From positions 1 through 27,804 of IMG/VR virus record IMGVR_UViG_3300049172_000092: a stretch of DNA of 27,804 nt, one strand, 5' to 3'. Position numbers and translations under genes: made by a program. This stretch comes from a virus. Taxonomy: Duplodnaviria; Caudoviricetes. A model generated the notes under the pieces. That model searched no databases, had not been told where the DNA came from, and saw only the letters and a program-made list of their open reading frames with translations. Below are positions 1,871-24,688 of this stretch, one piece after another (positions within the stretch are counted from its first letter, which is position 1; each line of letters opens with the position of its first letter).

Positions 1871-2317
1871 GTGGCCAACATCGTGTTCAACGTCGCACTC
1901 GGCAAGGTCAAGTACTACGCCGAGCTGCCCGCCGCGAACGACGCCCTGATTGCAGTGCCGATCGAAACGACAGGCATTGCCTCCGACGCCACCATGCGCG
2001 ACTACGACGACCTCGCCGCGCTACTGGCCGGCGCGTCCAACGAGCAGACGACTGCTGGCCGCAAGACCCTCACCGGCGTCACCGTCACCGTCGACGACAC
2101 CAACGACCGGGTGGCCGTCGACAGCGCGGACATCACTTGGACCGCCGCCACGGGCAACGCGATCTCGGCCCTCGTCATCTGCTACGACCCCGACACTACG
2201 ACGGGCACCGACACCGACCTGATCCCCCTCGTCAAGCTCGACTTCGCCATCACGCCAGACGGCAGTGACGTCACCGCCACCGTCGCCGACCTCTACCGCG
2301 CCACCTCCGCGGCATAG
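1871..2317 (+). CDS. Putative virion structural protein (minor tail or fibre-associated)
   Basis: GTG with RBS AGGAG. 148 aa, Thr/Ala/Asp/Val-rich, beta-strand pattern (TLTGVTVTVDDTNDRVAVDSADITWT). Structural role is inferred from composition. Confidence 0.7.
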   Translation: MANIVFNVALGKVKYYAELPAANDALIAVPIETTGIASDATMRDYDDLAALLAGASNEQTTAGRKTLTGVTVTVDDTNDRVAVDSADITWTAATGNAISALVICYDPDTTTGTDTDLIPLVKLDFAITPDGSDVTATVADLYRATSAA

Positions 2318-2328
2318 GAAGGTGAGCC

Positions 2329-3273
2329 GTGGCCCTCCTCGGCACCCTCAAAGATGGCTTTGACGACGGCAGCATCAACACCAGCCTGTGGACCGGGAAC
2401 TACGGCGACCTCATCGAATCCGGCGGCCGAATCCGCATTCCCTGCACCACCGGATACGCGGGACTCAAATCGGCCAGCACCTACACCCTGACCGGCTCTC
2501 AGATCCTGCTGCGCGCCTATCCGCCCGCCGCAGGTGGTGCCACAAGCGCCGCAGCATCCATCCTCGTTCTGTCCTCGACAGGCGGAACCGACGCCGGATT
2601 CATTGTCGACCGAGCTCAAAACGCCATCGGCCTCTACAGCCGGGTCGGATACGCCGACGGCAGCGCCGTGTTCCTCACCTACTCGGCCACCGACCACGCC
2701 TGGCTGCGCCTCCGCGAAACCGGTGGCACCCTCTTCTGGGACACCAGTGCCGACGGCGTCAGCTGGACCAACCGCCGAACTGCAAGCACCCCGGCCTGGG
2801 CGGGCGACGCCAACCTTGCGTTCCTCATCGAAGCCCACCGCGACGCCGGCACCGACGACTACGCCGAAGCCGACTACGTCAACCTGCCGCCGGTCAACGT
2901 CGCGCTCGGCGCCGCCAGCGAAACCAGCACTGCGCAGACGGCCACCCGAAGTAAGACGAGGGCCGCGGGCTTCGCCAGCGAAACCGCCACCGTGATCGGG
3001 CCTGGACGAGTCAAAGCCCGGACGATGACCGCAGCGGCGAGCAGCGAGACGGCACAACCCCTCGGCCGGACCAAAGCGCTCGCCCTCGGCCCGGCATCCA
3101 GCACGGAAGACGCCATCGCTTTCGGACGCCGCAAGACCCGCAGCGTCACCGCGGCAGCCGAGGCGGACACCGTGCAACCTGTCGGCGTCAGCGTCACATC
3201 CGTCGACCACGCCTACACCGTTGGTGCACCGCGCAGCCTGTGGGATGCCGCGATCGGAGAACCGGGAGGGTGA
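2329..3273 (+). CDS. Putative fibre protein: N-terminal lectin/ConA-like beta-sandwich plus C-terminal 20-aa repeats
   Basis: GTG with RBS GGAAGGTGA. DGFDDGSINTSLW start and WLRLRETGGTLFWDTSADGVSWT are typical of ConA-like sandwiches. Repeats at 2908-3207. Confidence 0.7.
   Translation: MALLGTLKDGFDDGSINTSLWTGNYGDLIESGGRIRIPCTTGYAGLKSASTYTLTGSQILLRAYPPAAGGATSAAASILVLSSTGGTDAGFIVDRAQNAIGLYSRVGYADGSAVFLTYSATDHAWLRLRETGGTLFWDTSADGVSWTNRRTASTPAWAGDANLAFLIEAHRDAGTDDYAEADYVNLPPVNVALGAASETSTAQTATRSKTRAAGFASETATVIGPGRVKARTMTAAASSETAQPLGRTKALALGPASSTEDAIAFGRRKTRSVTAAAEADTVQPVGVSVTSVDHAYTVGAPRSLWDAAIGEPGG
2908..3207 (+). repeat. Five degenerate in-frame 60-bp (20-aa) repeats
   Basis: GAASETSTAQTATRSKTRAA / GFASETATVIGPGRVKARTM / TAAASSETAQPLGRTKALAL / GPASSTEDAIAFGRRKTRSV / TAAAEADTVQPVGVSVTSVD; conserved A at position 3 and R-x-K at 14-16 in the first four. 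Confidence 0.75.
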
Positions 3274-3277
3274 CGCC

Positions 3278-3565
3278 ATGCAACACGCGGCCAGCGACAC
3301 CCGCTATCTCCGCATCCCCGTCACCCCACCGGCAGGCGTCGACCTGTCCACCGCCCCGGTGAAGATCGCCGTCGTCTCTCACCGCACCAACCCCACCGCA
3401 GCGGAATGGCATCCCGCCGTGTGGGACTCGGGTAACGCCCGCATCCTCATCGGACCAGGCGGAGCGGTAGCCCCAACGCGAGGCGACTGGCGAGTGTGGA
3501 TCACGTTCGACCCGCCCGGCGCCGAGAACATCGTCGAACTCGCCGGCTACCTCAGCGTCATCTAG
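3278..3565 (+). CDS. Small beta-rich (Ig-like/BppU-like) putative structural protein
   Basis: ATG 3278 with RBS GGGAGG. 95 aa, pattern ARILIGPGG..RGDWRVWITF..ENIVELAGYLSV. Confidence 0.7.
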   Translation: MQHAASDTRYLRIPVTPPAGVDLSTAPVKIAVVSHRTNPTAAEWHPAVWDSGNARILIGPGGAVAPTRGDWRVWITFDPPGAENIVELAGYLSVI

Positions 3566-3753
3566 CTGCGGTCACGCCACGGCCGATCGCGTCCGTGGTC
3601 CCGATCCACCCGCATCTGCCGGCCGTAGCCCACGAACACGACGATCATCGCCACGACCGACAGCAGCATCAGCACTGGCTGGCCCCACACCCAGCCGACC
3701 ACCAGCACGCACAACGCTGCCACCAGAACTCCGGCAGCTACATTCCCCTGCAC
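3562..3753 (-). CDS. Small two-TM membrane protein, antisense to the late operon
   Basis: GTG at 3753 preceded by GGGGGTGGTGAC. 63 aa with two hydrophobic segments (VAAGVLVAALCVLVVGWVW, PVLMLLSVVAMIVVFVGY) and a charged tail. Fills the gap between + genes; its stop overlaps the stop at 3563-3565. Confidence 0.65.
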   Translation of the reverse strand: MQGNVAAGVLVAALCVLVVGWVWGQPVLMLLSVVAMIVVFVGYGRQMRVDRDHGRDRPWRDRS

Positions 3754-3796
3754 GTCACCACCCCCAAGCTGCACACGGTACGGAGAGGAAAGCGCG

Positions 3797-4045
3797 ATGG
3801 CTACCTCTGGTGACGGCCTGGCCTTCAGCGGATCGATGGATGCCTTTACCGTCGCGCCCCCCACGCCACCCCGCATCATCATCTCCTCTGAAAATGGGAC
3901 GCCTCTCGTCACCATTCACCCCAACGGCACACTGGAGTACGGACCCGGCTACAGCCCAGACGAGGCGGCCCGCCGCTTCTGGGATGCGATGCGCGTCTAC
4001 ATGCCGACGCGGTGCGGTCACGTGCCAGGCCAGCAGGTGGACTGA
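3797..4045 (+). CDS. Hypothetical phage protein
   Basis: ATG with RBS AGAGGA. 82 aa; stop overlaps the HNH start (TGATG). Confidence 0.7.
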   Translation: MATSGDGLAFSGSMDAFTVAPPTPPRIIISSENGTPLVTIHPNGTLEYGPGYSPDEAARRFWDAMRVYMPTRCGHVPGQQVD

Positions 4046-4431
4046 TGCCCAGACGCGGGGGATACCGGGTGTGCACCGTACCCGGGTGCCCGGCCTACAC
4101 CCGGGGTGGCGGTCGCTGCGACGAGCATCGGAGTGAGGCGGAGCAGAGGCGAGGCACGGCAAGACAGCGAGGCTACGGACGAGGGCATGAGACCCGCTTC
4201 CGCCCAGCCGTCCTCGCCCGCAACCCAACGTGCGTGTGCACCGACGAGGAGCATGGCCACGGCTCACCGTGCGGGCAACGGTCCGTGCACGCAGACCACT
4301 GGCCGCTCAGCCGGCGCGACCTCGTGGCCCAAGGCCTCGACCCCAACGATCCGAAGCACGGCCGCGGACTGTGCGGTCCATGCCACAGCAGGAGCACGGC
4401 ACGCGAGCAGCCAGGAGGCTGGAACCGATGA
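4045..4431 (+). CDS. Terminase-associated HNH endonuclease (HK97 gp74-like)
   Basis: 128 aa. N-terminal C-x4-C..C-xx-H, RGTARQRGY, then C..C..HADH..LCGPCHSRST. Located just upstream of the terminase genes. Confidence 0.85.
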   Translation: MPRRGGYRVCTVPGCPAYTRGGGRCDEHRSEAEQRRGTARQRGYGRGHETRFRPAVLARNPTCVCTDEEHGHGSPCGQRSVHADHWPLSRRDLVAQGLDPNDPKHGRGLCGPCHSRSTAREQPGGWNR

Positions 4432-4652
4432 CCATGAAGGCCAAGGCGAAGGACGACGAGGGCGAGACGACAGAGGCGACGGAAGAGGTGGTGAGGGTCG
4501 AGGAGGTGCCGTTGTGCGGCGCCCCGCACTACCTGCCCATGCTCGCCCACCTGACCTGCACCCAGCCGGCCGCCGACCCGGACCTGCCGCCCGGCACTCC
4601 GGAGCACGAGCATCGGCACCAGGACGGGGACGCGATCTACGTCTGGCGGTGA
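4428..4652 (+). CDS. Small acidic hypothetical protein with Cys/His cluster
   Basis: ATGA overlap with the HNH stop; RBS AGGAGG. 74 aa, LCGAPH..LTC..HEHRH. Confidence 0.7.
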   Translation: MTMKAKAKDDEGETTEATEEVVRVEEVPLCGAPHYLPMLAHLTCTQPAADPDLPPGTPEHEHRHQDGDAIYVWR

Positions 4653-4703
4653 CCACCCAGGGTGTCATCGCAGGCCCCGGCCGGCGGATTTCCGTCACGG
4701 AGA

Positions 4704-4816
4704 GTCATGATCACCTGGGGGGAGACCCCATGATCAAGATTCGACAGGGACCGCCGGGGAGGTGGCTCCCCCTCTGTACGGATCTGGAAGGTCCGTGATC
4801 GCGGGTTGATCATGAC
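4704..4816. other. Candidate cos / packaging initiation region
   Basis: Non-coding gap between the HNH cluster and terS. Inverted 10-mers GTCATGATCA (4704-4713) and TGATCATGAC (4807-4816) are centred on 4760, at ACCGCCGGGGAGG. Cos assignment is inferred from position. Confidence 0.5.
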
Positions 4817-4830
4817 GCAGCGTTACCCAA

Positions 4831-4871
4831 CGCCGGCCGCAACGGCGGGCGCTGACGTGCCGCAACGGCAC
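4831..4871 (+). promoter_or_regulatory. Tandem CAA-loop hairpin pair upstream of terS
   Basis: CGCC-g-GCCG-caa-CGGC-g-GGCG (4831-4851), 5-nt linker, GTGCCG-caa-CGGCAC (4857-4871), then SD GGAG at 4874-4877. Confidence 0.55.
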
Positions 4872-4887
4872 TTGGAGTTGATCAGTC

Positions 4888-5505
4888 ATGGCAGGTATGG
4901 GACCTCCCCCCAAGCCGGCCGGGGAGCGGCGCAGGCGCAACGCCACTGTCGCGATGACCCGACTGCCGGCGGGCGGCCGACAGGGCGATCCGCCCAAGTG
5001 GCCGCTGATTGCTGACGTGGTGGCCACGACTCACCGGGACATGGCCCGACGACAGGCCGACGAGTACGAGTTGCAGCTGCTGGAGCCTGATCTGCAAGGC
5101 CGTCAGCGGGCTGCGGTGCAGCGGAAGTTGGACGGCGCGCAGTCGGCGGCGACGGTGCTGGACAAGCAGATCGAGGCCACGGCCGCCCTGGAGGCGGAGC
5201 TGTGGCGGGATCTGTGGGCGACTCCGCAGGCGGTGGCCTGGGAGCGGCTGGGCTGGACCCGGGAGGTCGCCCAGTACGTCCGCTGGAAGGTGAAGGCGGA
5301 ACTCGGTGACCTGGACGCCTCGAAGGAGGCCCGACAGTTGGGTGACCGGCTGGGGCTGACGCCGTTGGCGCTGCTGCGGCTGCGCTGGGAGATCGCGCCG
5401 GACGAGGTGGCCGAGCAGCGGCAGGAGCGCACCACGCAGGCGCGCAAGAAGACGGCACGGCAGCGGCTGAGAGTGGTCGACTCGGATGCCGTGGCGGGGT
5501 CCTGA
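4888..5505 (+). CDS. terS: Terminase small subunit
   Basis: MAGMGPPPKP..RRRRN start, PPKWPL..LWRDLWATPQAVAW, DRLGLTPLALLRLRWEI; typical actinophage TerS; overlaps terL. Confidence 0.9.
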   Translation: MAGMGPPPKPAGERRRRNATVAMTRLPAGGRQGDPPKWPLIADVVATTHRDMARRQADEYELQLLEPDLQGRQRAAVQRKLDGAQSAATVLDKQIEATAALEAELWRDLWATPQAVAWERLGWTREVAQYVRWKVKAELGDLDASKEARQLGDRLGLTPLALLRLRWEIAPDEVAEQRQERTTQARKKTARQRLRVVDSDAVAGS

Positions 5506-7057
5506 GCATCCGGGCGAGTTCCCCACGCTGGGCTGGCTGGTCGGGGAGTGGATTGAATCCCACTGCGTCATCCCGGACGGCGATGACATTGGTGAGCCGT
5601 ACCTGCTCACGGACGAGATGTGGACGTTCCTCGCCTGGCACTACCGGCTTCGAGCGGACGCGACTGAGGATGGCTGGCGGTCTGCGTGGCACTACCGTCG
5701 TAGCCAGCTGGTTCGCCCTCAGAAGTGGGGCAAGGGCCCGCTGACGTGCGCGATGGTGTGCGCGGAGGCGGACGGCCCGGTCCGGTTCGCTGGCTGGGAT
5801 GCGAGTGGCGAGCCGGTGGGGCGCCGGTGGGAGACGCCGTGGATTCAGATCGCCGCGACGTCCGAGGACCAGACGGACAACGTCTACCGCGCTCTCGTTC
5901 CGATGATCAACGAAGGCCCGCTGGCGGACATCATCCCGGATACGGGGGAGACCCGCATCAACGTTCCGGGCGGTGGGCGTATCGAGCCGGTCACCTCGTC
6001 GGGCCGGGCTCGCCTCGGTCAGCGGATCACGTTCGCGGTGCAGGACGAGACGCACAGCTGGGTGGAGGCGAACGGCGGTTGGAAGCTCGCCGAGACCCAG
6101 CGAAGGAACCTCTCGGGGACCGGCGGCCGGGCGGTGGAGACGACGAACGCGTGGGATCCGTCCGAGCAGAGCGTGGCGCAGCGGACCGCGGAGGCGTCCG
6201 TGAAGGACGTGTACCGCGATCACCGGGTTCCGGCGCCGGCGTCGCTGGCGAACAAGCGGGAGCGGCACAAGGCGCTGCGGCACGCCTACGGCGATTCCTC
6301 CGTTCTCGTCGGCGGCTGGGTTGATCTGGACCGCATCGACGGCGAGATGGTCGAGATCGCGGAGAAGGACCCGGCGCAGGCCGAGCGCTTCTACCTGAAC
6401 CGGATCGTCGCTGGCACGGGCGCGTTTATCGACGGAGACCGCTGGGATCTGCGCAGCCAGCCGCAGGAGGTCGGCCCGCAGGCCCTGGTGACGCTGGGAT
6501 TCGACGGCTCGGACATCGACGACTGGACCGGGATCCGCCTGGAGACTCTGGACGGCTACCAGTTCACTCCGGTGTACGGGCCAGATCGGCGGCCGACGGT
6601 CTGGAATCCGGCGGAGTGGGGCGGTCAGGTGCCGCGCCTGGAGGTCATGGCCGCGTTCGACGAGATCTTCGCCGTGTTCTCCGTCGTGCGCGCCTATCTG
6701 GACCCGCCGTACTGGGAGTCGGAGTGCGACACGCTCGCCGAGAAGTACGGAGAGAAGGTCGTCACCCGCTGGTACACGAACCGGATCGCCCAGATGCACG
6801 GCGCTGCCGAGCGGCTGGCGACGGACGTGACGAAGAAGGACTCGACGTTCCGTCATGACGGCTGCCAGTGGGCTGGCCAGCACATCCGCAACATGCGCAA
6901 GGGGGCCCGGCCCGCAGGCCGCTACGTGCTGAAGAAGGCCTCCGAGAGCCAGAAGATCGACATCGGGATGTGCTCGATCCTCACGCACGAGGCGGCCGGC
7001 GATGCGATCGCCGCCGGCCTGGCACGCACCAAGAAGCGCAAGGCGCGCGGATTCTGA
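5486..7057 (+). CDS. terL: Terminase large subunit
   Basis: 523 aa. Walker A-like RPQKWGKG, Walker B FAVQDETH, coupling motif TTNA, nuclease motifs LGFDGS..DDWT and KID. Confidence 0.95.
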   Translation: MPWRGPEHPGEFPTLGWLVGEWIESHCVIPDGDDIGEPYLLTDEMWTFLAWHYRLRADATEDGWRSAWHYRRSQLVRPQKWGKGPLTCAMVCAEADGPVRFAGWDASGEPVGRRWETPWIQIAATSEDQTDNVYRALVPMINEGPLADIIPDTGETRINVPGGGRIEPVTSSGRARLGQRITFAVQDETHSWVEANGGWKLAETQRRNLSGTGGRAVETTNAWDPSEQSVAQRTAEASVKDVYRDHRVPAPASLANKRERHKALRHAYGDSSVLVGGWVDLDRIDGEMVEIAEKDPAQAERFYLNRIVAGTGAFIDGDRWDLRSQPQEVGPQALVTLGFDGSDIDDWTGIRLETLDGYQFTPVYGPDRRPTVWNPAEWGGQVPRLEVMAAFDEIFAVFSVVRAYLDPPYWESECDTLAEKYGEKVVTRWYTNRIAQMHGAAERLATDVTKKDSTFRHDGCQWAGQHIRNMRKGARPAGRYVLKKASESQKIDIGMCSILTHEAAGDAIAAGLARTKKRKARGF

Positions 7058-7072
7058 CCGAGAGGGGGCCGG

Positions 7073-8452
7073 ATGCCTCAGCCTGCAGTCCAGTCCCCGG
7101 AGTGGTGGCGTGACCGCCTGTACGAGAAGCTGTGCAAGCGGTCCGCGGAGACGAAGGTCTTCGACGACTACTACGAGTGCGAGCACCCGCTGCCGTTCCT
7201 GCACGAGAAGGCCCGGGATCCCTTCCGGCGCCTGCTGAAGATGTCCCGGGCGAACTACATGGAGCTCGTCGTCGACGCCCTGGTGGGCCGCCTGGAGGTC
7301 GCCGGCTTTCAGTCCGACGCCGAAGGCGAGTCGGACAAGGCCGCGTGGGCGCTGTGGCAGGACAACAATCTCGACGGCGGCTCGTCCCTTGCGTTCCTGG
7401 AGGCGGCGATCCGCGGCAACTCCTACCTCCTGGTGTCGCCGGACAAGCGGCTCGACTTCCGGATCACCCCGGAGCATCCGACGCAGGTCATCACCGAGGA
7501 GAAGCCGGGCGAGCCGGGCGAGCTGGCTGCTGCGTTGAAGCTGTGGCTGGACGACTGGACGGCAAGGCTGTGCTGCACGCTCTATCTGCCGGGCAACGTC
7601 TACAAGTTCGACGCCCCGGAGCCGAAGACGGGAAGCAAGCCGCGCTGGGAGCGCCGAGAAGTTGCAGGCGAGGAGTGGGGCGGTAAGAACGTCCTGGGCG
7701 AAGTGCCGTTCGGGGAACTCACGAACCGGCCGCGCATGCTGAAGCCGGGCGCCTCGGAACTGCGGTCGGTCACAGGGATCCAGGACCGGATCAACAAGAC
7801 GATCGCGGACCGGATGATGACCCAGGAAGCGGCGGCTTTCCCGCAGAAGTGGGCCACAGGCCTGGAGATCCCTGTCGATGAGAACGGGCAGGAGATCGAG
7901 CCGTTCAACGTCGCCGTCAACAAGATCCTCATCGCCGAGGATGGCGGCGCCAAGTTCGGCCAGTTCGCCGCCGCGGACCTGACCGGCTACCTGAAGGGCA
8001 AGGAAGCCGACGTCCACGACATCGCCGCGATCACGTCGACCCCTCCCCACTACCTGCTCGGCTCGATGGTCAACCTCAGCGCGGAGGCGTTGAAGGCCGC
8101 CGAGGCGGGCCTGATCCACAAGATCTACCAGCGGCGCCGGTTCCTGGAGGAGGGCCTGGAGCGCACGATGCGCCTCGCCGGGTTCGCATCCTCGCAGGCG
8201 CGCATCGTGTGGAAGTCCCCGGAGTGGCGGACCGAGGGCGAACTCGTCGACGCACTGGTCAAGATGGGCACTCTCGGGGTCCCCCGTGAGGTGCTGTGGG
8301 AGCGCTGGGGTGCGACGCCGCAGGAGATCGAGCGGTGGCGCAAGCTCAGCGAGGACGCCCTGGACCGGGCGCTCGCCGGAGACATCGCCGCCGAGTACGG
8401 GCCGAAGCCGACCGCCACGGACGACCCCGCGGCGGTTGCGGCCGAGGAGTAG
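7073..8452 (+). CDS. Portal protein (SPP1 gp6-like)
   Basis: 459 aa directly after terL. YY.CEH, NYMELVVDA..RL, WQDN, AFPQKWATG, NLSAEALKAAEAGL motifs. Confidence 0.93.
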   Translation: MPQPAVQSPEWWRDRLYEKLCKRSAETKVFDDYYECEHPLPFLHEKARDPFRRLLKMSRANYMELVVDALVGRLEVAGFQSDAEGESDKAAWALWQDNNLDGGSSLAFLEAAIRGNSYLLVSPDKRLDFRITPEHPTQVITEEKPGEPGELAAALKLWLDDWTARLCCTLYLPGNVYKFDAPEPKTGSKPRWERREVAGEEWGGKNVLGEVPFGELTNRPRMLKPGASELRSVTGIQDRINKTIADRMMTQEAAAFPQKWATGLEIPVDENGQEIEPFNVAVNKILIAEDGGAKFGQFAAADLTGYLKGKEADVHDIAAITSTPPHYLLGSMVNLSAEALKAAEAGLIHKIYQRRRFLEEGLERTMRLAGFASSQARIVWKSPEWRTEGELVDALVKMGTLGVPREVLWERWGATPQEIERWRKLSEDALDRALAGDIAAEYGPKPTATDDPAAVAAEE

Positions 8453-8455
8453 GTG

Positions 8456-9514
8456 ATGGCGACGGCTCGGCAGCTCGCGCTGCGCCACTACCGCCGCCAG
8501 CAGCGCATCGCCCGCCTCACCACCAATCAGATCCAGGAACTGTGGCGACTCCTCGACGTCAGCGATCTGACCGGCTCCTGGAAGGCGGGGATCGGCCGCC
8601 GGATGACGCAGGTCGTCACCGCCGGACAGCTGGCGTCAGCCGGCCTCGCCGACGCCTACGTCGACGAGATAGTGGACGTTGAGGGCGGGGATCCTGAGCG
8701 CGCCGGGTCGGTTCGATCGGCCGCGTTTGCGGGGCTCGCCGCGGACGGGCGGGCGCTGGACTCGCTGCTGTACCTGTCCGTGATCACGACGAAACAGGGG
8801 ATTGGCGGCGGGCTCGATACGCAGGATGCCCTGATGCGCGGCCTGCGTCGGGCTTTGACGATGTCATCGTCGGAGGTGACTCAGGCTGGCCGGGGAGCTG
8901 TCGGCGCGTCGATGGCGGGGAAACGGACGATCCAGGGCTACGTGAGGGTCGTGCAACCGCCGGCCTGCGCCCGCTGCATCGTCCTGGCGGGCAAGGAGTA
9001 CGGCTGGAACACCGGCTTCCAGCGGCACCCCAAGTGCGACTGCATCCACTTGCCGACGACGCTGATCGCACGGAGTCAGCGCCGAGGCCGCGTGGACTCG
9101 GACAGCTTCACGCCGACCACCCGGCCGGGCCGTGGTGGCGCCGGCTTCATTGACCCAAGCGCCTACTTCAATGGTTTGTCGCGTGCCGAGCAGGACCGCA
9201 TCTTCACTGCCGCGGGTGCTCGGGCGATCCGCGAGGGCGCCGATATAGGCCAGGTCGTGAACGCCCGCCGCGGCATGTACACCTCGACCGCCTACGGCCG
9301 GACACTGCGTGCGACTCGTGAGGGCACGACGACGCGGGGTTCCTTCTACCGGCAGGAGCGGGCGCGGGACATCGCCCGTGGTCGCGTGCCGGCCAACATC
9401 GGCCGCCAGTACCGGCTGACGTCACCCCGCCTGATGCCGGAAGAGATCTTCGAGCTTGCCGAGAGCCGCGATGAGGCGATCTCCATGCTGCGCCGCTTCG
9501 GCTATCTGACCTGA
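8456..9514 (+). CDS. MuF-like head morphogenesis / minor capsid protein
   Basis: Between portal and scaffold. GYVRVV..PACARCIVLA..FQRHPKCDC motif. RBS GAGGAG favours ATG 8456. Confidence 0.8.
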   Translation: MATARQLALRHYRRQQRIARLTTNQIQELWRLLDVSDLTGSWKAGIGRRMTQVVTAGQLASAGLADAYVDEIVDVEGGDPERAGSVRSAAFAGLAADGRALDSLLYLSVITTKQGIGGGLDTQDALMRGLRRALTMSSSEVTQAGRGAVGASMAGKRTIQGYVRVVQPPACARCIVLAGKEYGWNTGFQRHPKCDCIHLPTTLIARSQRRGRVDSDSFTPTTRPGRGGAGFIDPSAYFNGLSRAEQDRIFTAAGARAIREGADIGQVVNARRGMYTSTAYGRTLRATREGTTTRGSFYRQERARDIARGRVPANIGRQYRLTSPRLMPEEIFELAESRDEAISMLRRFGYLT

Positions 9515-9549
9515 CCGTGCGCAATGCGCGGCCTTATCCCGCAACGGGA
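9515..9549 (+). promoter_or_regulatory. Tandem CAA-loop hairpin pair upstream of the scaffold gene
   Basis: CCGTGCG-caa-TGCGCGG (9515-9531, two G-U pairs), 5-nt linker, TCCCG-caa-CGGGA (9537-9549) overlapping SD GGGAG at 9546-9550. Confidence 0.55.
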
Positions 9550-9556
9550 GTTCCGC

Positions 9557-10111
9557 ATGTCCGAATCCGCAACCGAACCGACCGCGCCGGAAGGCGGCGA
9601 GCCCTCCGGGCAGCCGGCCGAGCCGAGCACTACGAGCGCCCCGGCAGGAGACGCCCCCCTGGGGCCCGCCGGCGAGAAGGCGCTGAACGAGTGGAAGCAG
9701 CGCGCCAAGGCCGCCGAGAAAGCGAGCCGGGAGCAGGCTGCCCGACTCCAGGAGATCGACGACAGAGACAAGTCCGAACTGCAGAAGGCCAACGACCGGC
9801 TCACCAAGGCAGAGCAGCGTGCCGCCGCAATGGTGGAACGCACCGCCCGTGCCGAAGTGCGGGCCCTCGCCGCCGGCACGTTCGCCGACCCTTCTGACGC
9901 CGCGGCCTTCCTGAACGTGGCCGACTTCGTCGACGACGAAGGCGACATCGACAGCAAGGGCATCGAGAAAGCCCTCGCCGATCTGCTGAAGCGCAAACCG
10001 CACCTCGGCAAAGAGGCGGCCCCGCCCTCCTTCGATGGCGGCGCCCGCACCACCGCGGCGAAACCGCAATCCATGAACGAGCTCATCCGCCAGCAGGCGG
10101 GCGCGAGCTAA
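9557..10111 (+). CDS. Capsid scaffolding protein
   Basis: ATG 9557 after GGGAG. 184 aa with disordered N-terminus, LGPAGEKAL, coiled coil with DKSELQK, FADPSDA, KPHL and MNELIR; directly before the capsid gene. Confidence 0.88.
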   Translation: MSESATEPTAPEGGEPSGQPAEPSTTSAPAGDAPLGPAGEKALNEWKQRAKAAEKASREQAARLQEIDDRDKSELQKANDRLTKAEQRAAAMVERTARAEVRALAAGTFADPSDAAAFLNVADFVDDEGDIDSKGIEKALADLLKRKPHLGKEAAPPSFDGGARTTAAKPQSMNELIRQQAGAS

Positions 10112-10168
10112 CACCGTCCGGCCCGGCTCGAACCGGCCGGCCATTCTCACGAAAGGCAGGCAGAAGCC

Positions 10169-11131
10169 GTGGCCTACAACAACCTGACGAGCCGCACCGA
10201 CGCCGCGGCTCTCATCCCCGAAGACGTGTCCAAGGAGATGCTGGGCAAGGCCGTGGAAGACTCCGCGGCCCTGAAGATGTTCAAGCGGATCCCGGTGGCG
10301 CGCGGCCAGCTGCGCCTGCCGATCCTGTCGGCCCTGCCGGTCGCCTACTGGGTGAGCGGCGACACCGGCCTGAAGCAGACCACCGAGGTCAACTGGGCAA
10401 ACAAGTTCCTGAACGTCGAGGAGATGGCGACGATCGTCCCCTTCCCCGACAACGTCCTCGCCGACACGGACGCCGACCTGTGGGACGAGGCGGAGCCGCT
10501 GGTGCGAGAGGCGTTCGGCCGCCTGCTCGACTCGACGATCTTCTTCGGCACGAACGCGCCGTCGAGCTTCCCGACGAACATCCTGTCGGCCGCAACGGCC
10601 GCAGGGAACAGCGTCAACGAGGGCTCCACCGCTGCGAACGGCGGCTTCTTCGGTGACATCGACAACGTCTACGAGAAGGTCGAGGCCGACGGCTTCGAGG
10701 TGAATGGCTGGGTGGCCGCCACGTCCGCCAAGTCGAAGCTGCGTCGCGCGAGGGACACCCAGGGCCGCAAGCTCGACGAGAACCGCGTCCCCGGCGACAT
10801 GCGCACCCTCGACGGCTACCCGATCGAGTACGCCATGAAGGGCCTCTTCCCCCTCGCGGGCGGAGTCGGCGTCGACGGCGTGCGACTGTTCGGCGGCGAC
10901 TTCGACGAGTTCGTCATCGGCGTCCGCTCCGACATCACGATGAAGATCCTCGACCAGGCGGTCATCCAGGACAACACCGGGGCGATCATCTACAACTTGG
11001 CCCAACAGGACATGACGGCAGTCAGGTTGACGTTCCGCGTCGGCTGGCAGGTCAGTAACCGAATCAACAACGAGCAGCCGACCGAGGCATCCCGCTACCC
11101 CGTCGCCGTCCTCAAGACCGTCGGCGCCTGA
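10169..11131 (+). CDS. Major capsid protein (HK97 fold)
   Basis: 320 aa. LIPE..S.E, AYWV.G, RDTQGR, GDF, NLAQQDMTAVRLTFRVGW motifs; position after scaffold. Confidence 0.93.
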   Translation: MAYNNLTSRTDAAALIPEDVSKEMLGKAVEDSAALKMFKRIPVARGQLRLPILSALPVAYWVSGDTGLKQTTEVNWANKFLNVEEMATIVPFPDNVLADTDADLWDEAEPLVREAFGRLLDSTIFFGTNAPSSFPTNILSAATAAGNSVNEGSTAANGGFFGDIDNVYEKVEADGFEVNGWVAATSAKSKLRRARDTQGRKLDENRVPGDMRTLDGYPIEYAMKGLFPLAGGVGVDGVRLFGGDFDEFVIGVRSDITMKILDQAVIQDNTGAIIYNLAQQDMTAVRLTFRVGWQVSNRINNEQPTEASRYPVAVLKTVGA

Positions 11132-11156
11132 CCCGAACCCCACGAAGGAGACAGAC

Positions 11157-11564
11157 ATGGCCGACACCGCCCCCTACGTGCGGGTCATCGAAGCCGACGT
11201 CCCGGCCGTCTCGACGGCCGGCAACGACGACGACAGCGTGATCGCCCAGGCTCCGTTCGACTGCACGGTGACTTCCGTGGAGTACGTCCCGGAGGCCGCC
11301 ATCACCGGCGCCGACACCAACAGCCGCACCGTCAGCCTCGTCAACAAGGGCGCGGCAGGCTCGGGCAGCACGACCGTCGCCTCACTGGCGCTCACCAGCG
11401 GCGTCAACGCCACGGCGAACAACGAGAAGACCATCACCCTGTCCGGCACTGCAGCCAACCTGGTCCTCGCGGCCGGGGACACCCTGCAGTGGCGATCCAT
11501 TCACGTCGGCACGGGCATCGCCGACCCGGGCGGCCTCGTCCGGATCACCGTCTCCCGGAACTGA
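11157..11564 (+). CDS. Putative capsid decoration protein
   Basis: RBS AAGGAG. 135 aa, Thr/Ala/Val/Ser-rich beta protein right after the capsid gene. Confidence 0.65.
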   Translation: MADTAPYVRVIEADVPAVSTAGNDDDSVIAQAPFDCTVTSVEYVPEAAITGADTNSRTVSLVNKGAAGSGSTTVASLALTSGVNATANNEKTITLSGTAANLVLAAGDTLQWRSIHVGTGIADPGGLVRITVSRN

Positions 11565-23377: not shown

Positions 23378-24688
23378 ATGACGACCTTCAACGACCTGCC
23401 CCACGTCTTCTACTCCGCGCACCGAGGAGGAGCCGGCGAGGCGCCCGAGAACACGATCGAAGCGCTTCGTGCCGGCGCCCGGTGGGCGGAAGTTCTCGAC
23501 CTGGACACGCAGATCCTCGGCGACGGGACGCCGGTCCTGATGCATGACGAGACCGTCGAGCGCACCACCAGCGGAACCGGACCAACCTCCGCCTTCGGGA
23601 TCGCCCAGTGGGAGATGCTCCGCAGCGACCCGGGCACCTGGTTCGCCGCCGGGGCGCCAACGCTCGCAGTGCCCACCGTTGAGCAAGCCCTGGACGCCTT
23701 TGGTGGGCGCCGAGTGATGACGGTCGAGGCCAAGAACGCGGACGGGGTGGCCGAGCTGGCCACCCTCATCCGGGACCGGAGCCTGGCCGAGTCCGTGCTC
23801 ATCAACACCAACGACCCCGGCACGGTCTCCACGATCCGAGCAGCGGGCTGCCGTGCCCATCTATGGCGCTCTGCCGCACAGATGACCAGCGACGACTTCG
23901 GAGCCTTCGTTGACGGTGGCGCGGACGTCCTCGACGTCGACATCGCCGCACCCGACGCGCTCATCGCCGCCGCCATCGGCGCCGGCCCGCCGCTGGGGGT
24001 GTGGGCCCACACTCTGACTCGCCGCTCACAGCAGGCCCGCGCGGTAGCGCTGGGCTGCCGTGGCGTCGTCACCGACTACCCGGGCTATGTGAGCGGGCGC
24101 GCCCCGTCCCGCCGCAGTGACAGCCTCACCTCGGGCTGGGGCTACGGATACGTCCCTTCGGGCACTGGCGCCCGCCCCAAGCTGCTGCCTGGGGGAGTAC
24201 TGCATTTCACCTCGACCGCCGACACGCAGGTGGTACTTCTCGGCGAGCTGTCCCCGATCACATCCGGCAGTTTCACCGTCGAGGTCAGGTTTTCCCTGTC
24301 CGCCGCCACCTCCCGCCCCTGGTTCGGCGTGCATCTCGGAATGGATGACGCGAGTACCGTCCTCAAGTCCAGCGCAGTCGTCCATAACGGCTACACCTGC
24401 CAGTTCACCGGTGGCGGCAGCCTGGCCATCTATCGCGACGACGGCACAGCGAAGACATCATCGAGCCTTGCTTCGAGCGCCGCGGGCGGCACGTTCTCCG
24501 CAGACACCGCGTACACGCTGCGGGTCACGGTCACGCCGACGCAATTGCGCGCGTCCGTCCCTGAACTGTCGACCGTGACAGCCGTCGCAAACGACGCCAC
24601 CTACCGCGGTCCGATGTACCTGTACCTCGGCCGAGCCGCCTCCGCCGGCGGCGTCACTGCCAAGGCTTGGGACATCACCGCCACCTGA
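23378..24688 (+). CDS. Glycerophosphodiester phosphodiesterase (GDPD) fused to a C-terminal beta-sandwich
   Basis: AHRG..APENT, LDLDT, DG.PVLMHD.TV.RTT, VPTVEQAL, VEAK and GVVTDYP cover the GDPD TIM barrel (about aa 10-236); about 200 aa beta-rich C-terminus. Confidence 0.9.
   Translation: MTTFNDLPHVFYSAHRGGAGEAPENTIEALRAGARWAEVLDLDTQILGDGTPVLMHDETVERTTSGTGPTSAFGIAQWEMLRSDPGTWFAAGAPTLAVPTVEQALDAFGGRRVMTVEAKNADGVAELATLIRDRSLAESVLINTNDPGTVSTIRAAGCRAHLWRSAAQMTSDDFGAFVDGGADVLDVDIAAPDALIAAAIGAGPPLGVWAHTLTRRSQQARAVALGCRGVVTDYPGYVSGRAPSRRSDSLTSGWGYGYVPSGTGARPKLLPGGVLHFTSTADTQVVLLGELSPITSGSFTVEVRFSLSAATSRPWFGVHLGMDDASTVLKSSAVVHNGYTCQFTGGGSLAIYRDDGTAKTSSSLASSAAGGTFSADTAYTLRVTVTPTQLRASVPELSTVTAVANDATYRGPMYLYLGRAASAGGVTAKAWDITAT

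Follow-up and report, generated by a model that had tools for sequence, protein, structure and literature searches.

The head-gene region of a virus contig assigned to Caudoviricetes (IMG/VR record IMGVR_UViG_3300049172_000092) raises the question of why two hairpins of similar design stand in tandem directly before two separate genes, terS, coding for the small terminase subunit, and the gene of the head scaffolding protein, and which molecule might read them. The window analysed here is the entire 27.8-kb contig (27,804 nucleotides), which carries late genes of a temperate siphovirus-type phage; its closest named relatives are prophages in Streptomyces genomes, with a portal identity of 78-89%. 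Both sites are copies of one tandem-hairpin element, and we consider it likely that the scaffold protein binds it as RNA and represses the translation of scaffold and terS. Comparison with related loci establishes, at the level of sequence, a two-hairpin element on translation starts, a loop identity shared between the two sites, and a match between residues of a scaffold helix and a loop base; action as RNA, direct binding, use of a dimer, repression, sensing of free scaffold and coupling to terminase are what we infer from it.

Both hairpin pairs described in an earlier note on this DNA were found in the sequence (Table 1), and the window contains no further tandem pair. As that note had it, the Shine-Dalgarno (SD) sequence follows the terS pair at a distance of 2 nt and lies inside the proximal stem at the scaffold gene, where the distal hairpin begins directly after the stop codon of the preceding MuF-like gene. 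In order-4 Markov simulations of the window at least one pair arose in 11 of 300 runs and two pairs in none of the 300. The folding energy of both sites was ordinary in comparison with shuffles (z -0.43 and -0.54), the antisense strand folded about equally well, and single hairpins of the same kind occur in coding sequence too. Since the folding energy is unremarkable, the case depends on comparison with relatives. A cmscan search of the whole window against Rfam, with E up to 5, returned five weak matches elsewhere and none at 4831-4871 or 9515-9550, which places both sites, as previously supposed, outside the named families of that database.

The comparison covered 41 portal-related loci and the window, together 504 kb of related and partly redundant sequence, in which 61 tandem pairs were found on the sense strand and 0 on the antisense strand, all of them directly before terS or scaffold genes. 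Across 21 distinct terS leaders, 95.2% of the stem cells of the alignment were paired, and covariation reached 0.657, against 0.225 when shuffled and at most 0.195 for slid structures; the stems therefore do vary in sequence and keep pairing. The proximal helix of the terS leaders was paired in 100% of cells, with three of its five pairs changed on both sides, and the scaffold leaders of close relatives vary less (two-sided changes in 2 of 9 pairs). The hairpin filter used here required C-G closure, G1, A4 and at least three pairs, G1 and A4 having been imposed after they were seen. Both the strand bias and the excess of G-U over A-C combinations (12 against 3 among 282 stem cells) agree with structure in RNA rather than in DNA.

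With the more distant loci included, the consensus reads stem-C[G N N A N]G-stem, twice, at a loop-to-loop spacing of 17-37 nt; in 101 scaffold leaders the spacing spans this same range, with peaks at 20-22 and 29-31. A linker of exactly 5 nt, as first described, is present at both sites of the window and is not conserved among relatives. The apex had been taken for a CAA triloop under a G-Y pair (G-CAA-Y) and is better read as a C-G-closed pentaloop G-N-N-A-N; G-CAA-Y is not a required pair, because the fifth loop base is C, U, G or A, although A is rare there (9 of 470 loops). Every proximal hairpin either contains or adjoins the SD or carries AUG in its loop: in 28 of 101 scaffold leaders AUG falls in the second loop together with the closing G, and elsewhere the SD lies in or beside the stem. 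This shifting of the signal between SD and AUG points to translation initiation. Covariation, strand asymmetry and the relatives with AUG in the loop thus uphold the idea of a protein-read, cis-acting motif at the starts of head-assembly genes. That the pairs are chance hairpins of GC-rich DNA, as the ordinary folding energies and the single hairpins in coding sequence might suggest, has a negligible probability; it is refuted by positional specificity, covariation, agreement between the sites and the residue match described below, unless the selection of loci created artefacts.

The third position of the loop is A, G or C and defines the loop class. The two hairpins of a leader agree in it in 100 of 101 scaffold leaders and in 46 of 46 terS leaders, and it is equal between the terS and scaffold leaders of one phage in 37 of 37 cases (29 A, 5 G, 3 C); in later sets this agreement was 13/14 and 8/8. 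Loop positions 2 and 5 vary. A base common to both leaders of a phage implies a phage-specific trans factor.

The earlier note left this binder unnamed, and co-variation points to the scaffold protein itself. In the mosaic phages L045 and L258 the terminase small subunit is of the window type (83% and 78%), yet the loops are of G class and the scaffold is of Arg type; in L246-L253 the portal is foreign (28-29%) and A-class loops are kept. Close homolog pairs of differing loop class were found for each of TerS, TerL, portal, MuF-like and capsid proteins. The mosaic phages argue against TerS, TerL, the capsid protein and the portal as reader. When loop class was searched column by column, the top columns fell at scaffold residues 46-53, with a balanced accuracy of 0.82; the best columns of other proteins gave 0.73 (portal), 0.65 (MuF-like), 0.61 (TerS) and 0.56 (capsid). 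Residues 46-53 begin a long predicted scaffold helix (37-105), and Lys47 of the window scaffold agrees with the A-class loops of this phage.

Two types of scaffold helix occur, GxxGxKAL, to which the window phage belongs, and W-K-x-x-A/S-R. In the first type, A loops go together with Lys at position 47 and G loops with Arg; in the second, the residue at position +6 is Asn or Gln where the loops are of A class and His where they are of C class. Recognition of guanine by Arg, and of adenine by Asn or Gln, is textbook knowledge. This residue-loop rule was set down before blind loci, chosen by DNA pattern alone, were examined. The two blind sets of 248 and 120 loci contained 102 and 73 with a scaffold match, 86 and 65 with a called pair, and finally 70 and 55 that were new and non-redundant. 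Read by alignment column, C loops had His in 47/56 and Trp in 9/56 cases, G loops had Arg in 13/14, and A loops had neither His (0/55) nor Arg (0/55). Read by fixed residue patterns, which were written after the column-wise tally, 106 of 106 informative scaffolds agreed, the 125 loci including a further 5 with Trp and 14 unclassified. The pooled sets gave Lys-A in 44/44, Arg-G in 33/33, His-C in 52/52 and Asn/Gln-A in 44/44. Helix position +6 separates A from C loops at 0.99, the next-best position at 0.79, and four identical six-residue contexts were found with both Asn and His, each paired with the matching loop.

We also considered that the His and Asn codons merely mimic the loop DNA; this idea was set aside, as Gln codons (CAG/CAA) go with A loops in 21 cases and the otherwise invariant C-G closure is absent there. 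It should be added that the scaffold leaders of L050 and L051 have four-base loops (GCAC and GCAU), together with Trp at helix +6.

The independence of the match was assessed on a scaffold tree built without the helix from 147 of 227 rows, after 34 short and 46 near-identical ones had been removed. Loop class changes at least 34 times on this tree, and 137 rows agree with the rule; independent pairs gave 6 in the same and 0 in the opposite direction for G-Arg (p 0.03), and 8 and 0 for C-His (p 0.008). The terS leader is situated 4-5 kb from the helix codons; of 68 phages, 62 could be classified and 6 could not, and in 61 of the 62 this leader matches the scaffold helix, a doubtful call being the sole exception. 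A TerS tree requires at least 12 switches of loop class, and 6 of 6 independent pairs go with the helix (p 0.03), the class tracking the scaffold and not TerS.

Several points weigh against the scaffold as a reader that represses. The hairpin filter biases the pairing figures upwards and misses loops of other form, such as the 4-nt loops of L050 and L051. Whole-protein nearest-neighbour prediction of loop class succeeded in 39 of 46 cases with the scaffold, the same as with TerS and portal, and Trp at +6 is ambiguous, being found with both A and C loops. The trees were calculated with FastTree on short alignments and leave 64 of 144 forks open, and on the TerS tree the sub-rules have too few independent pairs (G-Arg 4, p 0.125; C-His 3, p 0.25). 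L460 is discordant between its two sites, on a doubtful terS call. The pair is missing from 27 of 73 terS leaders, and the terS arm is therefore optional; the sign of the regulatory effect is not fixed by sequence. Finally, no more than about 140 nt separate the scaffold leader from the helix codons, and linkage could therefore account for part of the match; only the terS leader and the single-residue contexts are exempt from this argument.

Linkage is also the core of the alternative in which the hairpins have some other binder (MuF-like protein, portal, TerS, a small unannotated ORF or a host factor), the match to the scaffold reflecting a hitch-hiking module of leader and N-terminus. The leader adjoins the helix codons, the N- and C-halves of scaffolds recombine, whole-protein prediction did not favour the scaffold, and our comparison covered head-module genes. 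We nonetheless regard another binder as improbable, as the terS leader tracks the helix from a distance of 4-5 kb, single-residue alternatives occur in identical contexts, and the other proteins compared each have close homologs of differing class; a host factor would not switch class among phages of one genus.

The same data bear on a role of the element as DNA, in which palindromic or cruciform sites near cos would be bound by TerS, in the manner of cosB, or by the scaffold during packaging. Such a role would be in keeping with the distance of 70-110 nt between the terS pair and the likely left end of the genome, and with the antisense strand folding about as well. Unlike TerS sites of the cosB type, the pair occurs more often at the scaffold gene, which lies 4.7 kb from cos, and is missing from many terS leaders, while its class tracks the scaffold rather than TerS; moreover, G-U exceeds A-C and the position of the hairpin shifts along with the SD or AUG, and we hold action as DNA to be very improbable. 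Slightly less credit still is given to nut/put-like antitermination signals for the long late operon. The first copy does head the late gene block, and lambdoid boxB, as treated in PMC12550061, is defined by GNRA-like pentaloops that a basic helix reads. Against this, both copies overlap translation starts, and the scaffold copy follows immediately upon the stop codon of the gene before it; a search of 3500-11300 for terminator-like sites gave none on the sense strand, and the co-varying protein is a capsid scaffold. Even taken jointly, roles in DNA and in antitermination would be improbable.

The element was also recovered without any protein query: when viral contigs were scanned for the proximal hairpin only, 119 distinct matches were obtained, 35 of them with an upstream partner, and of these 19 precede scaffold genes, 11 precede terS and 5 were unassigned. 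Loop-specific scans led to estimates of about 310 and 320 stored stretches for two patterns. The scaffold copy is the constant one: of 163 non-redundant scaffold loci 101 have it, and different leader families are found in many of the others; the terS copy was found in 46 of 73 terS leaders. Among named phages, the pair stands at both genes in Streptomyces phage Kromp and Brevibacterium phage AGM1, in variant form at both genes in mycobacteriophage Hades, at the scaffold gene only in Streptomyces phages Dubu and phiSASD1, and at the scaffold gene in mycobacteriophage Aminay; all six agree with the residue-loop match. A covariance model of the scaffold leader, applied to 5 genomes, gave one strong match in each, at the known prophage site, and weak ones elsewhere (E 0.01 or more). 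A loose pattern search of 301 Streptomyces genomes matched 36, and its reversed control matched at least as often; among 30 loci from this search, 4 had a partner hairpin, namely two rule-fitting scaffold genes and two unrelated loci.

Some individual loci deserve mention. In Kromp (L119:134-200) the motif implies that terS likely starts at 134 and not at the GenBank position 200, and in Hades (L668:4381-4441) a scaffold start 19 codons after the annotated one is likely. In L242 (minus strand) a further pair stands before an ORF of 57 codons that lies upstream of terS, and in L590 another (3573-3610) stands before a 147-aa gene, 2.1 kb downstream of the scaffold start. Phage phiSASD1 (L243:4546-4636) has three consecutive GCAAC hairpins before its scaffold gene.

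In the mechanism that we propose, the two helices of a scaffold coiled-coil dimer would each read one loop, and binding would stabilise the stem containing the SD or AUG, or would block the adjacent 30S footprint. Scaffold held in procapsids would be unable to bind, and free scaffold would measure unfinished assembly and cap its own synthesis. Where the terS copy is present, terminase would be held down until heads take up scaffold, or would be limited again upon scaffold release during packaging. The dimeric binder and the action on translation put forward in the earlier note are presumed here as well; a homodimer prediction for scaffold residues 30-155 scored 0.09 against a mark of 0.42 and was used neither for nor against.

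The scaffold might also read the loops and not repress, by activating translation, by stabilising the late mRNA or by being held on its own message and that of terS, so as to nucleate head assembly while translation proceeds. Co-variation reveals a matched reader and says nothing of the sign, and some distal hairpins are 35-50 nt from the start, beyond a strict 30S footprint. We consider this rather unlikely, since the proximal hairpin is always at the SD or AUG, a geometry in which binding would block initiation, and control by the P22 scaffold is said to be negative. Extended from the window to its kin, repression by scaffold becomes a broader proposal that we find on balance probable: GP20/DUF4355-type scaffolds of actinobacterial phages would be sequence-specific RNA-binding repressors, with a short basic helix, opening the coiled coil, that reads tandem pentaloops by a one-residue-one-base code that has switched dozens of times; the operator would have been copied to terS, and occasionally to other late genes, coupling terminase supply to head assembly, and other helix types would go with other leader families.

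The arrangement has parallels in known systems. In repression by the MS2/R17 coat protein and by CsrA/RsmA on tandem hairpins, a dimeric protein binds loops at the SD or AUG and blocks initiation; the proteins are unrelated to the scaffold, and their loop sequences differ (ANYA and GGA, respectively). Autoregulation of the P22 scaffold, gene 8, was reportedly proposed in 1985 by Casjens and Adams and by Wyckoff and Casjens; it is said to be post-transcriptional, to be attributed to the scaffold itself and to follow the logic of free versus procapsid-bound protein. As with P22 gp8, the cis site here is in the translation-initiation region of the scaffold gene, with the pair at SD or AUG in the 101 scaffold loci. 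Unlike it, the present scaffold belongs to a different phage group and gave no match in sequence or fold to a solved scaffold, and there are a defined tandem pentaloop, a second target in terS and a residue-to-base code in natural variation. In lambda boxB the fifth loop base is A. The boxB/N systems of lambda, P22 and phi21 resemble the element in that, in the relevant passages of PMC12550061, a short GNRA-like pentaloop hairpin occurs in phage-specific variants read by a basic helix; in P22, according to the same passages, His7 and Arg11 of the N peptide are in contact with the C looped out from GACAA. They differ in that the conserved A is fourth here, with A as the fifth base in those few loops (9/470), whereas it is fifth in P22 GACAA, and in that they serve antitermination, whereas the present tandem hairpins stand on translation starts and their putative reader is a capsid scaffold. 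By sequence the A and G loop classes fit the n5-n6 insertion variant of GNRA outlined in that part of PMC12550061, and C at position 3 breaks its R rule.

Closest in position are Rfam GP20-a (RF02991), GP20-b (RF03003) and six csRNAs, which lie upstream of GP20 genes and are presumed to be cis-regulatory in the pertinent passage of PMC10690425. They are structured leaders, and the window sites include one directly before a scaffold gene that may be of the same GP20/PF06810 type, its product matching PF06810 below cut-off; unlike them, the window sites gave no match to RF02991 or RF03003 at E up to 5. The passage on GP20 names no binder, gives GP20 as of unknown function, makes no mention of a terS copy and names hosts outside the Actinobacteria (PMC10690425). 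Four Streptomyces-associated candidates, e.g. DNAVirus_1060 and DNAVirus_1362, appear in the tables of that article, and one of them may overlap this motif. A literature search that included few subscription papers returned no description of the motif, of a link between scaffold and terS or of a residue-base code, and the bare motif may be among the candidates of PMC10690425 or PMC5737381.

Table 1. Positions of the hairpin pairs, of the helix codons and of neighbouring features in the window
Feature	Position	Strand	Remarks
terS leader, distal hairpin	4831..4851	+	pentaloop GCAAC 4839-4843, C-G closure; one G-G mismatch
terS leader, linker	4852-4856		
terS leader, proximal hairpin	4857..4871	+	pentaloop GCAAC 4862-4866; ends 2 nt before SD
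terS SD and start codon	4874..4890	+	GGAG 4874-4877; ATG 4888
Scaffold leader, distal hairpin	9515..9531	+	pentaloop GCAAU 9521-9525; two G-U pairs
Scaffold leader, linker	9532-9536		
Scaffold leader, proximal hairpin	9537..9550	+	pentaloop GCAAC 9541-9545; 3' arm is SD GGGAG 9546-9550; ATG 9557
Scaffold codons 46-54 (WKQRAKAAE)	9692..9718	+	start of basic helix co-varying with loop position 3
Possible third hairpin in scaffold gene (tentative)	9822..9836	+	C[GCAAU]G, loop holds in-frame Met92 AUG
HNH	4012-4431		
Likely cos overhang (9 nt)	4752..4760	+	about 70 nt upstream of terS pair; context, outside motif
Terminase small subunit (terS)	4888..5505	+	directly before terL; second, facultative motif target
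terL	5486-7057		
Portal	7073-8452		
MuF/VG15-like	8453-9514		
Head scaffolding protein (184 aa)	9557..10111	+	primary motif target and putative binder
Major capsid	10169-11131		

Gene order in the window was assigned from PHROGs and Pfam. The terS product matches PF25673 Terminase_7 at E 1.1e-4, under the cut-off, and also phrog_226, relatives of which additionally match phrog_1897 terS. The scaffold matches phrog_4708 at E 5.7e-23 and PF06810, which we take to be the former Phage_GP20 family, at E 4.4e-5 and 24 bits, below the cut-off of 35; its look-alike cluster in the Atlas is 11% PF06810. An AlphaFold2 model of the scaffold (mean pLDDT 82.5) predicts a disordered N-terminus, the long helix, a small helical domain and a C-terminal helix (173-180). 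A PDB sequence search to E 1 and a Foldseek search matched no relative of the scaffold, which for coiled coils is a weak negative. In the alignment with the isolated phage Kromp, the left end of Kromp falls at 4761, and cos is therefore probably the 9-mer preceding it, which is identical in 4 of the 5 other rows; downstream, at about 4773-4787, lies a conserved block. A search of 3500-11300 showed no sigma-70-like promoter, and transcription of the terS leader is therefore assumed from gene order. A look for RNA records of 4000-11200 gave none, which has no bearing on expression.

Within the scaffold gene, the tentative third hairpin may serve as an additional binding site or as a regulated internal start. 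Its loop is formed by GCA, a rare Ala codon, present in 17 of 17 close relatives, which are not independent, against 84 of 650 other Ala codons. A hairpin within terS (4934-4944) was set aside as a by-product of conserved RRNA codons. Other features of the contig include tail-like or unknown genes (phrog_26662, phrog_14065) at 1871-3565, upstream of HNH and terS and separate from the main tail module, and a 436-aa ORF (23378-24688) between the tail genes and the lysin, presumably, from likeness by eye, a glycerophosphodiester phosphodiesterase fused to a beta-rich domain. The leader of the capsid gene (10112-10168) has another conserved GC-rich structure, without pentaloop and with two sequence types among relatives.

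Other scaffold genes carry leaders of different design. A second family has the core GCCGACGG, then TTAC/TAAAC, and was found at the scaffolds of L042, L047, L061, L064, L067, L070, L076, L078, L081 and L089; these scaffolds have a helix of the F/L-x-R-I-I-x-x-R-L-x-R-E-R type or a close variant, and the three with a called terS have no terS pair. This family may be kin of the GP20 motifs. A third, with CCCAGGAGG/CCCAAGGAGG hairpins, occurs in L121 (Bernal13), L670 (Elezi) and L055; an AW-x-L-x-QNLR helix is common to the scaffolds of Bernal13 and Elezi, and gene 1 of Bernal13 is preceded by a further copy. Each of the two families going with its own helix type would fit the same principle of a scaffold helix matched to its leader.

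We take the element to be a real and widespread RNA operator, apparently undescribed, and a variant of scaffold autoregulation. Its co-evolution signal is unusually clean; it supplies a candidate binder, an RNA site and specificity residues, and the mechanism is therefore testable by single reciprocal swaps in cultured phages; laboratory hosts are available for Kromp (Streptomyces lividans), which has both pairs, and for the cluster F-type Hades (M. smegmatis), which has the variant. The motif would also help to correct mis-called start codons. Structured leaders before scaffold genes, such as the GP20 motifs, have so far been catalogued without a binder in the passages that describe them (PMC10690425), and such orphan GP20-type leader RNAs would, if our proposal is true, gain a common one. 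Small orthogonal peptide-hairpin pairs would then become available for translational control in high-GC bacteria. For the phages themselves, an RNA-binding role would be added to a very common capsid scaffold family, together with a feedback from head assembly to DNA packaging.

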